The notes beneath the pieces were generated by a model, which was not told the origin of the DNA, searched no databases, and saw only the letters and a list, made by a program, of their open reading frames with translations. From IMG/VR virus record IMGVR_UViG_2667527914_000002: DNA of 4,633 nucleotides, one strand, 5' to 3'. The translations under genes and the position numbers were made by a program. Shown here piece by piece: positions 1 through 4,633 of this stretch (positions are counted from its first letter, which is position 1; each line of letters begins with the position of its first letter). Origin of the DNA: a virus. Its lineage: Duplodnaviria > Heunggongvirae > Uroviricota > Caudoviricetes.

Positions 1-82
1 CGAGGTAATCCCCCAGAGAAGTCAGTGGGTTACGCAGAGAATCGTAACGGGATACCAGATCAAGAGCCTGTCCAATGTGCAT
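1..82 (-). CDS. insG: IS4 transposase, N-terminal 27 codons only (rest of gene lies beyond window start)
   Basis: ATG at 82-80 (minus) followed by MHIGQALDLVSRYDSLRNPLTSLGDYL, open to the window edge. This matches my recollection of the E. coli IS4 transposase InsG N-terminus. Absent from the ORF track because it is truncated by the window. Confidence 0.75.
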   Translation of the reverse strand, partial: MHIGQALDLVSRYDSLRNPLTSLGDYL

Positions 83-116
83 AAAAAAATCCGGAAACAA
101 GTGAGCGTTTCCGGAT
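83..116 (-). terminator. Intrinsic-terminator-like hairpin plus T-tract inside the IS4 end, immediately upstream of the transposase ATG
   Basis: Perfect 10-bp stem (plus-strand 89-98 atccggaaac and 107-116 gtttccggat) with an 8-nt loop. On the minus strand it is followed by TTTTTTT (89-83) and then the transposase ATG at 82. Confidence 0.5.
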
Positions 117-148
117 TCTTACACAGCCACTGGATCGGTCAACTGATC

Positions 149-166
149 CTTAACTGATCGGCATTA
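149..166. repeat. IS4 terminal inverted repeat (outer end at 166)
   Basis: 18 bp TAATGCCGATCAGTTAAG on the minus strand at the element boundary. Three GATC sites cluster at 133-136, 145-148 and 156-159 in and next to the repeat. Confidence 0.65.
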
Positions 167-1306
167 CACCACCGGGACGCGGATTCATATCTTCCAGGTC
201 GCGGCAGTCATTGGAAGAGTAAATTCCCCAGTTGATCCCGGTGGCGTAGGCTTCAAAACGGGACTTCATATCCCCGCGCAGTAACGCCCCGGCGTTAAAT
301 TTGGCGTAATAAACGCCCTGCTTACTTTTTCGTACCAGTCCGGTGTTGATCCGCTGTTCGATGCGGGTCAGATACGGCACCAGTGAATAGTTGATAAATC
401 CCAGCCCCAGCTCTTCGATATTGTTGAAGGTGGCGCGATCGGTGTTCTGCACCATGTGCAACGGCACCCGGAACAGACGACAGATTTCTTCCAGCTGAAA
501 CTTGCGGGTTTCCAGGAACTGACTGTCCTCGGCGTTCAGCGCCATCGACTTCCAGTCCAGCCCCATTTCCAGAATCATCGGGCGGTGAGCATTGCCAAGC
601 CCCGTGTGACACTCCTCAAAATCTTTCTTCAGACGCTCGTAAGCATCCGGCGTGAGCTTTTGTTCCGTACGCAACACACCGGATGTCACCGCACCATTAC
701 TAAACAACCTGGCACCGTGCTCCTCGGTTGCCGCTGCCAGTGAAATGGCCTCACGCGCATACGCAATGGGATTCAGCCCGACAAGTCCATCCAGCGTCAG
801 GGTGCGCACATGCCAGATTTCATTCTGGGTCAACACATCCACGGAACCATCCGGAAACGTCACCTGATAAACCGGCTGCCACTGGCTGTTCAGCTTCGGT
901 TCCACACAGCCCGGATCTATCGGAAGAAGCTCCACCACTTCTCCCAGTGCCTTTACCTTGTAGGCGTAAAAATTCCCCCGTAGACACAGGCAGACAATAA
1001 CCAGCTCCCAGAATTCCTGCGGTGTCATGTAGCCATTAGGTTTTGCCGAAACCAACTTATGCAGTCGTTCATCCACCGCCCGTGTTTTCAGGGTACCGCT
1101 GATTTTGTAGAGACTGCAGGGCAGCATACCAACAGACTCTGCCAGCACCCTGACGCAAGAATAGACCGCCGTCAGGCGCATGGCCCGCTGGCTACTGATC
1201 CGCTTTCCGGTATAGGTGTCGTATGACAGCCCGATAGCATCAGCAGTTCTGCTGGCGTGGTCACCGGCACATCGCTTTTTCGTTGAAATAATCCCGAAAA
1301 GAACAC
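150..1306 (-). pseudogene. Phage portal protein, HK97 family; apparently disrupted by an N-terminal frameshift and by IS4 insertion at the 3' end
   Basis: The 415-aa ORF (150..1397) contains portal-like conserved segments (RLTAVYSCVRVLAESVGMLP near the N-terminus, NDCRDLEDMNPRPGG near the C-terminus). Its frame has no credible start after the upstream ORF's stop. A GTG at 1306-1304 with GGAGGT 5 nt upstream opens a different frame encoding a portal-like N-terminus ([22 protein letters not shown]...) that stops at 1172. The last 5 codons (VMPIS) and stop at 150-152 are encoded by IS4 sequence. Confidence 0.75.
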
Positions 1307-1488
1307 TATTTACCTCCGCCGACAGACTGCCGTGTACGGTCGAGATATCGCGCCACCAGCCACGACCAGAACAGGCACAGCGCCCCGGCAACAACAAAAC
1401 CCGCCGGGGGATAAATCAGCCAGGCACCATACGCCAGCAAAAGCGCACCCAGCACGCCCACCAGAGGCGCGAGAATCAGCATGATCAT
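1306..1488 (-). CDS. Hypothetical small membrane protein (60 aa, two predicted transmembrane helices)
   Basis: ATG at 1488-1486 with GAGGT 5 nt upstream, starting 11 nt after the TerL stop. Its stop TAG (1308-1306) overlaps the portal GTG start (TAGTG). Sequence [60 protein letters not shown] has two hydrophobic stretches and a basic C-terminal tail. No homolog recognised. Confidence 0.55.
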
Positions 1489-1499
1489 AATTACCTCAG

Positions 1500-3233
1500 T
1501 TAAAGCGAGCGGATCCCGTAGGACTCAATGTGGTCAGACAGCGTGTCTTCTTTCTCGTACAGCATGGCTCTGCCAACCGCCATAATCAGCGCAACTGCAC
1601 CATCGATTTTGTTTTCCGCCTGCTCTTTGACGGGTTTCACCACATCATCGTTACCCGGCATGTTTTTGCCGACCACGTTGCCGATACACCAGGTCATGAT
1701 GGGATTGCCGTCATGATGAAAACGTCCCGATTCAATCGCTGCTTCCAGCTCTTTCATCGGATCGGACATATTGGTGAAGTTCTGGACGATAGTGACGGGA
1801 TTCAGGTCTTCATCAGCAAGGTCATGTGACAACCCGGTCGCCCCGAAGGGGTCGATGGGTGACTCACTGACCGGGCTGATTTTGTTCGCCGCTTTGGCCT
1901 CCTCGAGGATGTAGCGATAATCCACCTCCGCACCATCGGTAACGGTCAGAACGCCCATTTCCACCCATTTCTGAAAGCGTTCGGCTGTCCGTCGATCTTC
2001 ATTTTTCTCGACGCTGTACACCGTGTCATACGGTACCCAGAAACGCGGGGCCACACTGTAGTAATGCGTTTTACCGTCAATCTCGCGGGTATAAAGTCGC
2101 GCCATGCTGTTCATATCCAGCTTACGCGCCAGGTCAAAGGCCAGAATGCACGGCTGCCCCTCGAACTGCTCAAGGGTCAGTGATTTATCCTCGCAGCTCT
2201 GCCAGCTCACCAAGTTGAAATACGCCGAACGCGCCGACACCCAGATATTGAGGTGTTTTGTTTTAAAGACGTTTGCCAGACGGGCGTTATTTTTCGCACG
2301 CTGCTGCTGACTTAACAAAAATTCGCGATAAACCGACACGCCAATATTTGGATTGGCTTTTTCCAGCACCTGCGGGCCGGTCCAGTCGTCACCTTCATCA
2401 ACGGTATAGATGATCCCGAACAGTTCATCGTTAGGCACCGAGCCGTTGAGCATCTCGATGACTTCCCGCCGCTTGTCGTAGCACGGCCCCTCAATGTTGT
2501 ACCCGGCGGTGGTGATGGCCCACATCAGTGGCTGACGTCGCGCCCCCATCCCGGTAAGCATTGTGGTATAAAGCGCATCGGTGGCATGCTCGTGATATTC
2601 ATCAACCACGGCACAGTGGGGTGATGAACCATCACCTGGGTTGCCGATCAGCGGTTCAAACCGCGCGCCATCCTCCGGACGGTTCATGTTTGAGGCGTTA
2701 ACCTCAATCCCGAACGCTTCCGTCAGCATGGGTGTGCGTTTACACATCAGTCGCGCCGGGCGAAAGACTTCCCACGCCTGTTTCTCTGTCGTGGCACCGG
2801 AATACACTTCCGCGCCAAACTCGTTATCACAGGCAAAACAATACAGGGCAACACCGGCAGAGATTGCTGATTTGCCGTTCTTACGGGGGATTTCGGTGTA
2901 CACCTCCCGGAAGCGGCGCAACCGGGTGCCTTTATTGACCCAGCCAAACGCACAGCAGATCACAAATAGCTGCCACGGCTCCAGCGTGATGGGCATCCGT
3001 TTGAATGCCCACTCCCCCTTGGTGTGCGGCAACAGCTGAATAAATTTCGCGGCCCGTTCAGCCAGGTCCTTGTCGAAGCGGTAACGAAACGACTTACTTT
3101 TTTCCGCCATCAGGTCATCAAGATGGCGCTGGCAGGCCTGAATCACAAACTGGCAGGCAACAATCTTTCCGCGCACGACATCCCGGGCATACTGATTTGC
3201 AGCATTTACGTTGGGGTAAGATTTCCGGCTCAT
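1500..3233 (-). CDS. terL: Phage terminase large subunit (577 aa)
   Basis: ATG at 3233, TAA at 1502-1500. N-terminal ATPase domain with a Walker A-like P-loop (IPRKNGKS) and Walker B (CAVVDEYHE). C-terminal nuclease domain with acidic motifs ([22 protein letters not shown]). Size and motif order fit terminase large subunits. Confidence 0.92.
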
Positions 3234-3724
3234 GATTCGATAATTTTCAGAAACGGGTTAGTGGCTTTCTTCTGCCCCGCCAGGCCAATCAGACGCTGGC
3301 GGCTGCTGGGGTCGAGTCCGAGCATTGCCCCCGTGCTGCTCATCTCGGACTCCTGTTCTTTTTTGGCGGTCAGCTCCGGATTTTTGACCCTGCCGCCCAT
3401 TGCACCGGTGATGGTGTTGCCCTGTATGGCAATATTTTTCACGGCACGTCGCCAGAACTCATAGGCCACGCACCACCGCTCAAGTACCGCCAGGTCAGTC
3501 ACGCACAGCAGGCCCTGACCGCAGAGTTCTTTGGTTGTCAGTTGCCACATGATCGTGGCGAGAGGGAGATCTTCTTCAGCGAACCACTCTGGTGGCTCAA
3601 CACCTTTGATGGGCGTAAAAACAGGTTCATCTTTGTTCAGGGCTCGCTTGCCGGGGTTTCCGGCCAGCGCCTTGCGCGCCGTTGGCTTGGGGCGACGCCC
3701 GGAACGCCCCGCCGTTCCAGCCAT
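3230..3724 (-). CDS. terS: Phage terminase small subunit, P27 family (164 aa from ATG 3724; alternative GTG start at 3733)
   Basis: N-terminus [34 protein letters not shown] matches the P27-family TerS signature as I recall it. AGGAG lies 8 nt upstream of the ATG at 3724. Stop TGA (3232-3230) overlaps the TerL ATG (ATGA). Confidence 0.85.
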
Positions 3725-3763
3725 ATGCGGCACTCCTGGTTAAATTTCATTTTTCGCGGGTAT

Positions 3764-3823
3764 AAAAAAACGATGGGGCGGGCAGTCCGGAAGACGTCAG
3801 GTCACAGGGATTTGCCCCGCCCC
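3764..3823. other. Candidate cos / packaging-recognition region: GC-rich imperfect inverted repeat with adjacent A/T run
   Basis: Arms ggggcgggca (3775-3784) and tgccccgcccc (3813-3823) flank a 28-nt spacer containing the palindromes tccgga and gacgtc. A7 run at 3764-3770. It sits in the HNH-terS intergenic region (3725-3845), where cos lies in HNH-containing HK97-like phages. Confidence 0.35.
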
Positions 3824-3845
3824 TCCCTACAAGTGAGAATAATTA

Positions 3846-4196
3846 TCACCGGATTCGTTCGCGCGCTGTTTTCGCTTTATGGCAGGGCCAGCACAGACTC
3901 TGCAGGTTGCTGTCTGCGTCTGTTCCGCCATGCGCTTTCGGGATGATGTGGTCGACGGTTTTCGCCTCGCTCACCACACCGACACGCAGACACAACTGAC
4001 ACAGACCTTTATCGCGCTTCAGAATACGGGCACGAATCACCGTCCATTTTGAGCCATAGCCACGCTGGTGGCGGCTCAGTCCGCGCTGGTGCTGCACCCA
4101 GCCTTCACCGCGATGTTTATCGCAGTAACCCGAACTGTCTGTGGTTGTACCTGCACATCCACGCTTACGGCAGGCACGTGGGATTAGTGATGGCAT
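3846..4196 (-). CDS. HNH endonuclease, phage packaging-associated (116 aa)
   Basis: ATG at 4196 with GAGGT 4 nt upstream. Cys-rich N-terminus (CRKRGCAG...GYCDKH), HNH-type motif VDHIIPKAHGG, then N...CWPCH. Position immediately upstream of terS is typical for cos-phage HNH proteins. Confidence 0.88.
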   Translation of the reverse strand: MPSLIPRACRKRGCAGTTTDSSGYCDKHRGEGWVQHQRGLSRHQRGYGSKWTVIRARILKRDKGLCQLCLRVGVVSEAKTVDHIIPKAHGGTDADSNLQSLCWPCHKAKTARERIR

Positions 4197-4238
4197 AAAT
4201 ACCTCATACCCTGCGAAATGTTTACCACGATAAAAAGG

Positions 4239-4633
4239 CTACTTAATGCACTGAGTGCGGATATACTCCTGTGCCCCTTCCAGTTGCATCTGCATCGTCA
4301 TCAGCCGCTCTCTGAGGGTGAAATAATCCCGTTCAGCGGTGTCTGCCAGTCGGGGGCTGGTTGCATTATCCACGCCGGAGGCGGTGGTGGCTTCACGCAC
4401 TGACTGACAGACTGCTTTGATGTGCAACCGACGACGACCAGCGGCAACATCAGCGCGCAGAGTTTCATTTTCAGCTTTCGCATCAGCTAACTCCTTCGTG
4501 TATTTAGCATCGAGTGCATTAACATCACGCTGTCTCTGCTGCATGTCAGTAATGGTTGCGTTCGCCAGCTTCAGTTCTCTTGCGTTTTTGTCGCGCTGCT
4601 CTTTGTAGGTAATGGCGTTATCACGGTAATGAT
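4239..4633 (-). CDS. Rz: Rz i-spanin (inner-membrane spanin subunit), 5'-partial; start lies beyond the window end
   Basis: Frame is open to the window edge. Translation [110 protein letters not shown]... is near-identical to phage lambda Rz as I recall it. Stop TAG at 4241-4239. Confidence 0.93.
4301..4483 (-). CDS. Rz1: Rz1 o-spanin (outer-membrane lipoprotein spanin subunit), embedded out of frame within Rz
   Basis: ATG at 4483 with AGGAG 7 nt upstream. [60 protein letters not shown] has a lipobox (VVGC, Cys20) and a proline-rich mature part, near-identical to lambda Rz1. Wholly inside Rz in a different frame. Confidence 0.93.

Follow-up and report, generated by a model that had tools for sequence, protein, structure and literature searches.

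The window analysed here, a stretch of 4,633 nucleotides catalogued as a Caudoviricetes genome (IMG/VR record IMGVR_UViG_2667527914_000002), carries phage spanin, HNH endonuclease, terminase, ymfR-like and portal genes, and ends within a copy of the insertion sequence (IS) IS4. We retrieved 17 Shigella sonnei-type chromosomal loci, and in 11 of them, among them the one in CP000038.1, which is S. sonnei Ss046 (PMC5447701), the sequence is 100% identical to the window; the exact TerL protein of the window (the large terminase) is indexed in 4305 blocks of public assemblies. In the retrieved loci (L006, L007 (CP044191.1), L009, L010, L029 (CP032523.1), L030 and L033 being those referred to by number) the view extended to at most 10 kb on each side of the gene used as query (TerL, HNH or TerS, the small terminase). 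We reason that the window very probably represents the right-hand part of a cryptic (defective), IS-eroded prophage remnant in the S. sonnei chromosome. All genes of the window lie on the minus strand, and the gene order is read from high to low coordinates, as follows.

4239-4633, minus strand: Rz gene (i-spanin), 3' 395 nt, the 5' end lying beyond 4633; Pfam Phage_lysis, 2e-52
4301-4483, minus strand: Rz1 gene (o-spanin lipoprotein), 60 amino acids (aa), intact; Pfam Rz1, 6e-20; lipobox VVGC at residues 17-20; AAGGAG Shine-Dalgarno (SD) sequence
3846-4196, minus strand: gene for a predicted packaging-associated HNH endonuclease, 116 aa, intact; Pfam HNH, 2e-16 (1.6e-16); GAGG SD
3725-3845, no strand assigned: HNH-TerS spacer, holding a probable cohesive-end (cos) site at about 3775-3791
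3230-3724, minus strand: TerS gene (small terminase, P27 family), 164 aa from an ATG, intact; AGGAG SD
1500-3233, minus strand: TerL gene (large terminase), 577 aa, intact; Pfam TerL_ATPase, 8e-26, and TerL_nuclease, 4e-33
1306-1488, minus strand: ymfR-like gene for a hydrophobic, probable membrane protein, 60 aa, intact
167-1306, minus strand: portal pseudogene, HK97 family; codons 1-380 of 413 kept, frameshift at codon 21, cut by IS4 at codon 381
1172-1306, minus strand: 44-aa frameshift open reading frame (ORF), with the normal GTG start at 1306, a GGAGG SD and a TGA stop at 1172-1174
1244-1245, minus strand: 1-bp deletion in codon 21, where one G of a GG pair is gone (intact relatives GAGCTGGCGGA, window GAACT-GCTGA)
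1-166, minus strand: left end of IS4, not phage DNA; terminal inverted repeat at 148-166 (CCTTAACTGATCGGCATTA on the plus strand)

What is left of the portal gene still matches its family profiles (Pfam Phage_portal, 3e-107; TIGR01537 portal_HK97, 7e-77, 258.9 bits, model positions 7-343 of 343) and aligns to the HK97 portal structure 8cez (residues 41-398 of 424). Base-level mapping against SfII, Escherichia coli A36 and phiP27 revealed exactly two lesions, the number given in the original prediction, and both were present in all 17 loci. The first is the deletion at codon 21, beside which the substitutions are synonymous once the missing base is restored; the second is the IS4 junction (166/167) after codon 380, where the last 33 codons are lost and the homology to the SfII and E. 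coli portal genes stops exactly (at position 167). Since IS4 by itself takes away no more than a tail at the C-terminus, the frameshift is the more damaging of the two. The stop of the 44-aa ORF lies just downstream of an in-frame ATG (1181-1179; ATGCGCCTGA) that opens a 343-aa ORF (150-1181) covering the portal body, which is the one called as a gene in public assemblies. It is conceivable that termination-reinitiation would yield this 343-aa truncated product, which would hold the entire conserved HK97 portal core.

Sequencing error was considered as the source of both lesions and excluded: 11 chromosomes are identical to the window, both lesions recur throughout the retrieved loci, and a short-read contig ending at the IS4 boundary is found in at least 20 samples, replication from which we conclude that the lesions are real. 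Among 5,426 complete E. coli genomes no unbroken closer copy of this portal allele was found (best match 93.6-93.8%), and the IS4-portal junction occurred in none of them.

At the 3' end of the portal gene the window passes into IS4. Positions 1-166 match IS4 copies annotated in E. coli genomes at 97% identity, and a transposase ORF starts within them (ATG at 79-77) and runs off the window; in the full loci it encodes a 442-aa Nterm_IS4/DDE_Tnp_1 transposase, so that both the terminal inverted repeat and the DDE transposase of the IS4 family are present. A strong hairpin with a T-run (approximately 84-120, minus strand) directly precedes the transposase ATG and may shield the transposase from read-through transcription arriving from the portal side. 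At the far end of IS4 we found neither a remnant of the portal 3' end nor a matching target duplication, i.e. the direct repeats expected at both ends of a simple insertion are missing. The unrelated, strain-varying chromosomal sequence that flanks this far end suggests an insertion that was followed by IS-mediated rearrangement or deletion. In Ss046-type strains (L010 13068-15830) an IS2 is nested in IS4 (with a 5-bp duplication, GTGTC) and is followed by bamE, recN, nadK and grpE, while in other strains (L006 13068-14493) IS4 abuts raiA, pheA, tyrA and aroF; these differing flanks point to an IS-mediated inversion of that chromosomal segment.

In intact relatives with an identical TerS the portal gene (413 aa) is directly followed by genes for a protease (216 aa), a capsid protein (401 aa), connectors and the tail. 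No homology to SfII-like protease, capsid or connector genes was found in the approximately 8.6 kb beyond the portal gene in ten loci, where the gene calls are IS4, IS2 and chromosomal genes, and no protease, capsid, connector or tail gene adjoins. The locus lacks an intact HK97-family portal gene as well as prohead protease and HK97-fold major capsid genes directly after it. The capsid-assembly defect that had been proposed from the broken portal gene is thus upheld, but it is much larger than was claimed, considering that protease, capsid, connector and tail genes all fail to follow.

The phage DNA to which the window belongs is a fragment of approximately 9.97 kb that extends from an IS2 to the IS4. 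Its phage homology begins at L010 3101, directly after IS2, and ends at the IS4 repeat, and a 9,960-nt short-read contig, seen in at least 20 samples, corresponds exactly to the IS2-IS4 interval. The gene order is DnaB-like helicase, an 85-aa protein, RusA, antiterminator Q, ORF6N antirepressor, four tRNAs, holin, endolysin, Rz/Rz1, HNH, cos, TerS, TerL, YmfR and the truncated portal, with the helicase-to-Q region being 94% identical to phiP27. To the left of the bounding IS2 lies a fragment of an AIDA-type autotransporter adhesin gene (L010 277-1785; Pfam AIDA, 2e-46) and no phage genes, which indicates that the left end of the prophage was also replaced or rearranged. Upstream, in the 10 kb viewed from the query genes, gene calling gave neither an integrase nor a repressor. 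The locus is therefore a block of phage genes in a bacterial chromosome in which essential morphogenesis genes are disrupted or missing, and from which the integration/immunity region (integrase, repressor) has been lost as a contiguous part, as is characteristic of cryptic prophages. Of the two readings offered in the original prediction, that of a decaying cryptic prophage is the one that fits this anatomy (an approximately 10-kb IS2-IS4 fragment), as integrase, repressor, head and tail genes, which it had proposed to examine, are all absent from the contiguous element, and so are early promoters.

Antiterminator Q is intact; directly after it come a promoter-like site (L010 5602-5631) and a hairpin resembling a terminator (5693-5709), candidates for pR' and tR' in the usual lambdoid layout. 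A cluster of tRNA-Met, -Arg, -Thr and -Gly genes (L010 6831-7141) lies between Q and the holin gene, the interval that holds the toxin genes in Shiga toxin phages; this locus has no such gene. Two loci (L030 and L033) harbour an additional IS3-family element (locus position approximately 2900-5560) that divides the DnaB-like helicase into parts of 92 aa and 387 aa, showing that IS-driven erosion is still under way in some strains. Shigella chromosomes are rich in such elements (229-348 IS copies each, IS2 and IS4 belonging to the families that expanded; PMC7373316), and S. sonnei 75/02 contains 23 prophage regions, many of them incomplete and several phiP27- or SfIV-like, that are shared with Ss046 (PMC5447701). 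Single-base indels were further noted in individual assemblies (L009, L006, L033) at window positions 1410 (a C-run in ymfR), 3754 (an A-run upstream of TerS), 3018 (a G5 run in TerL) and 1115 (portal). The split TerL of L033, which could be taken for further decay, is probably an assembly error, as are at least the indels of this assembly, in which chromosomal genes are split too. Within the window itself, the Rfam scan returned no RNA family match, and the promoter and terminator scan gave nothing above the shuffled expectation.

The HNH protein displays two CxxC pairs (CQLC and CWPC) together with a DH...N...H core, is identical to L34 of phiP27 at 115 of 116 positions with no gaps, and is predicted to be active as an endonuclease. 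TerS matches Pfam Terminase_4 (4e-20) and TIGR01558 (3e-20; 72.2 bits vs a cut-off of 45.6) and shares 163 of 164 residues with its SfII counterpart, likewise with no gaps; the exact protein also occurs in other genomes, in complete HNH-TerS-TerL-YmfR-portal-protease-capsid-tail modules. TerL, which has an AVVDE Walker B-like motif and whose ATGA start overlaps the TerS stop, aligns gap-free with the SfII protein (571/577 identical). The YmfR-like protein is identical to phiP27 at 59 of 60 residues and to the SfII homologue (annotated 'putative integral membrane protein') at 58; the gene is kept between TerL and portal in this phage group, and the name ymfR is used in the E. coli relatives and in e14 of K-12.

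The spacer between HNH and TerS is where we place the probable cos site (3775-3791). On the plus strand, positions 3775-3784 read GGGGCGGGCA (gene strand, TGCCCGCCCC) and match the annotated 10-nt cos of phiP27 (CGCCCGCCCC) at 9 of 10 bases, the ends of the SfV and SfIV genome records map to window position 3791, and the surrounding spacer does not differ from that of SfII and SfV. By sequence criteria, the HNH, cos, TerS and TerL components of an HK97/P27-type packaging module are thus all in place. TerS is just 46% identical to the phiP27 TerS, despite the 99% identity of HNH to phiP27, a difference that marks a mosaic joint in or near the cos spacer (window 3725-4196). The combination of a phiP27-like HNH (99%) with SfII-like TerS and TerL (99%) indicates that HNH and terminase partners were swapped between phage lineages. 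The HNH protein of HK97 enhances the cleavage of cos by TerL, and TerL and a procapsid are the minimum for packaging in vitro (PMC9410871); no procapsid genes are attached to the S. sonnei fragment.

The lysis genes are in a similar state. Rz, of which the window holds only the 3' part, is 154 aa long in the source chromosome, and the full gene (L010) matches the PHROG 13 Rz-like spanin over residues 1-154 of 154. Rz1 is embedded in Rz in another frame and has a signal peptide and a lipobox, as expected of a two-component spanin. Compared with phage phi467, holin (71 aa) and endolysin (165 aa), whose genes lie beyond the window, have their full length, as does Rz. A mere 42 bp (window 4197-4238) separate the Rz stop from the HNH start, an interval that measures approximately 0.8 kb in close E. 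coli relatives and there includes the bor/iss serum-survival lipoprotein gene; the same short junction in phi467 identifies it as a mosaic variant and not a lesion. Two S. sonnei-type chromosomes (L007 and L029) differ from the window at 56 positions, all of them within Rz/Rz1 (4272-4611) and including a 3-bp insertion, with identical flanks; this patch looks like gene conversion from another lambdoid prophage in the same genome. Taken together, the lysis and packaging block looks functional as far as sequence can tell. The earlier statement that Rz1, HNH, TerS and TerL are full-length with good translation signals proved accurate, given the gap-free alignments to SfII (TerS, TerL) and phiP27 (HNH), the SD sequences, and the Pfam match and lipobox of Rz1. 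The companion claim of intact lysis genes holds for Rz1, and for holin and endolysin beyond the window, with the qualification that Rz lies only partly within it.

An intact set of genes beside a broken one may be read as a sign of selection, and the age of the break is what bears on this. Estimates of the ratio of nonsynonymous to synonymous substitution (dN/dS) were obtained by the Nei-Gojobori method against functional phages, the portal being used with its missing base restored. The values were 0.045 (vs SfII) and 0.19 (vs SfV) for TerL, 0.08 (vs SfII) for TerS and 0.03-0.13 (vs phiP27 and phi467) for HNH, and the repaired portal gave 0.10 vs SfII, i.e. the broken gene exhibits no relaxation. 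Considering that this ratio is as low as those of the intact neighbours, and that the substitutions flanking the deletion are synonymous, the lesions are recent relative to the divergence from working phages; intact neighbours are then expected under neutral decay, and selection is not needed to explain them. A rough estimate agrees: with one point lesion in approximately 8 kb of coding DNA, about 0.9 would be expected in the remaining 6.9 kb, and the probability of finding none there is near 0.4. We stress that there is almost no variation among the S. sonnei loci, and that dN/dS speaks for recency only and cannot gauge selection within the clone.

The history that best accounts for the locus would run as follows. 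A mosaic temperate phage, with a phiP27-like early-late region and HNH gene and an SfII/SfV-like HK97-type packaging/head module, would once have resided here. The IS expansion in the lineage would have broken the prophage up, with IS2 inserting at the left edge just upstream of the helicase and IS4 in the 3' end of the portal gene, and recombination between IS copies would have removed or relocated everything past both edges. A separate single-base deletion would have frameshifted the portal gene at codon 21. The fragment left behind cannot form capsids and lacks an early control region from which Q and the late operon could be driven, for which reason it is most likely silent and non-inducible. 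We infer that its lysis and packaging genes are still intact for want of time to decay. Residual roles are possible in two respects: the remnant may serve as a substrate of homologous recombination for related phages, and it may respond to a compatible Q supplied in trans.

Four observations weigh against this account. With Q intact and candidate pR'/tR' elements present, another lambdoid phage could possibly trans-activate the late genes. The head and tail genes may survive elsewhere in the genome, following an IS4-mediated inversion. The remnant is nearly invariant across the retrieved S. sonnei assemblies, which is weak evidence either way. Finally, surveys indicate that lysis, portal and terminase genes are preferentially or early lost from incomplete prophages (PMC7744054), which makes the gene content here a little unusual; a complete Q-lysis-HNH-cos-terminase block is somewhat atypical for a remnant, and weak selection for its retention is possible.

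Among the alternatives, the one that survives best is also compatible with the remnant as we have described it, and would be a consequence of it: a passive reservoir without host function, from which incoming related phages could acquire intact lysis, HNH and terminase genes by homologous recombination. We hold this to be a tentative proposition, somewhat short of an even chance. Viable lambda recombinants carrying R, Rz or nu1 of the defective prophage DLP12 have been obtained, and cos stimulated the exchange (PMC3945230). At the S. sonnei locus the 56-difference Rz/Rz1 patch of L007 and L029 constitutes a recombinational exchange, and the phiP27-type HNH joined to SfII-type TerS and TerL at the cos spacer is visible mosaicism. 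On the other hand, no recombinant phage with the S. sonnei alleles was identified, and the patch records DNA that moved into the remnant, not out of it. For the hijacking of the retained genes by other elements, as raised in the original prediction, DLP12 offers a precedent in the use of such genes by other phages, and the patch hints at a similar exchange here; such a potential is a by-product of decay that is not special to this locus.

A domesticated cassette, in which Q, lysis, HNH and terminase genes are kept by selection for a host benefit (controlled lysis, vesicle release or phage interference) and the portal and head genes were expendable, appears improbable. In its favour, none of the 12 protein genes lying between IS2 and the portal is shortened, the retrieved S. 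sonnei assemblies differ hardly at all in this block, and lysis and terminase genes usually go early from incomplete prophages (PMC7744054). Precedents exist in E. coli K-12, where the DLP12 lysis module modulates outer-membrane vesicle production (PMC7918800), and in cryptic prophages that help with stress tolerance (PMC3105296). Against it, the broken portal has a dN/dS as low as the intact genes, so that too little time has passed since inactivation; a lesion-free remainder of 6.9 kb is far from surprising by the rough estimate above; and S. sonnei is a young, recently emerged clone, in which invariance is expected. Furthermore, no promoter or regulator for host use was found, the early region is gone, and the extra IS in the helicase gene of some strains amounts to continued erosion.

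Still less credence is given to a helper-dependent element, in which, upon infection by or induction of a related phage (of the SfII, SfIV, SfV or phiP27 type), the Q of that phage or the remnant's own Q would activate the late genes, the chromosomal cos would be cut by the remnant's HNH, TerS and TerL or by the identical enzymes of the helper, and the adjacent DNA would enter helper capsids, the remnant thereby acting as a satellite or as an origin of lateral transduction. The ingredients for such a process can be listed: HNH, TerS and TerL are intact, the two terminase subunits are 99% identical to SfII, the cos spacer around the cut site is identical to SfII and SfV, an HK97-type HNH stimulates cos cleavage by TerL (PMC9410871), and other phiP27-/SfIV-like prophage regions exist in S. 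sonnei (PMC5447701). Yet the hallmarks of a satellite are lacking, as the fragment contains no integrase or excisionase, no regulatory switch of its own and no helper-interference genes. Compared with phage-inducible chromosomal islands (PICI) and capsid-forming PICI, it is an ordinary lambdoid late region with a helicase gene, in which no integrase or satellite-specific genes were found. Cos phages such as lambda need a second cos approximately one genome length away to finish packaging. A single cos was seen here, and stable transducing particles are by this analogy unlikely; among 24 index blocks read (a limited sampling), the exact HNH showed no second site in S. sonnei chromosomes. Equally far-fetched is the version in which related phages (of the SfII, SfIV or phiP27 type) switch on, in trans, a cassette of Q, candidate late promoter, lysis genes, HNH, cos and terminase, so that the chromosomal cos would be cut. 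Helper capsids would then take up neighbouring chromosomal DNA, or the helper would be impaired in its own packaging, and the remnant would be a mobilisation origin or an accidental anti-phage decoy that is maintained by selection in S. sonnei. Packaging by a co-resident phage and retention by selection, both contemplated in the original prediction, find no support in anything recovered here, and neither is necessary to explain the locus.

That the portal lesions are artefacts in a really intact prophage can be dismissed as virtually impossible, for even though the deletion hits a GG pair and single-base indels do occur in some assemblies (L033, L006, L009), the replicated assemblies refute it: the same deletion and IS4 junction appear in 17 of 17 independent loci, the contig from at least 20 samples ends at IS4, and head genes are absent downstream in every locus.

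An IS-eroded prophage remnant of this kind has close parallels among known elements. The cryptic prophage e14 of E. coli K-12 carries the same packaging module: a 1736-bp stretch of it (aaaE-ymfR-beeE) matches window 902-2636 with 93.3% identity, from the 3' two-thirds of TerL through ymfR into the beginning of the portal. Like the S. sonnei element, e14 is a defective remnant in which the portal gene (beeE) is cut short. Its large-terminase gene, however, has become a pseudogene as well (aaaE, joined to part of a replication gene), and HNH, TerS and lysis genes are absent from the segment. While e14 keeps integrase, excisionase and repressor, the S. sonnei remnant shows the reverse, having intact terminase, HNH and lysis genes, unattached integrase and repressor, and IS-mediated breaks.

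DLP12 of E. coli K-12 is likewise a defective lambdoid prophage in which lysis genes, cos and terminase genes lie adjacent (Q - lysis - cos - nohD/terminase remnant), and its lysis genes and small-terminase gene are still functional and usable by an infecting phage via recombination (PMC3945230). It differs in having a lambda-type Nu1/A terminase with a truncated large subunit and no HNH gene, whereas S. sonnei carries an HK97/P27-type module with HNH and a full-length TerL, the truncation falling in the portal gene.

The serotype-converting phages SfII, SfIV and SfV of S. flexneri share 94-98% DNA identity with the window over TerS, TerL, ymfR and portal; together with the Stx2e phage phiP27 they are functional temperate phages with the same cos region. 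Each of these relatives has a complete genome that includes portal, protease, capsid and tail genes and supports particle formation, while the S. sonnei element stops within the portal. HK97 (gp74 HNH with TerS and TerL) has the same order of HNH - cos - TerS - TerL - portal, and the portal of the window belongs to its family; the S. sonnei TerS differs in being of the P27 family, its HNH activity is predicted from sequence, and the required procapsid is not encoded.

The kind of feature described here is already known, namely ordinary genome decay in a published genome, and it matters little beyond annotation; within these bounds, the locus shows clearly, down to the single base, how prophages in Shigella are taken apart as IS elements expand. 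Where a break is recent, the intactness of neighbouring genes is no argument for selection. In S. sonnei assemblies, the 343-aa 'portal' and the terminase genes next to it are best taken as components of a defective remnant, even though such regions may still receive high scores from prophage predictors. Related Shigella and E. coli phages could use the cos site and the intact terminase, HNH and lysis genes as recombination substrates, as in DLP12, a role that would be relevant to phage mosaicism and, marginally, to the safety of phage therapy.

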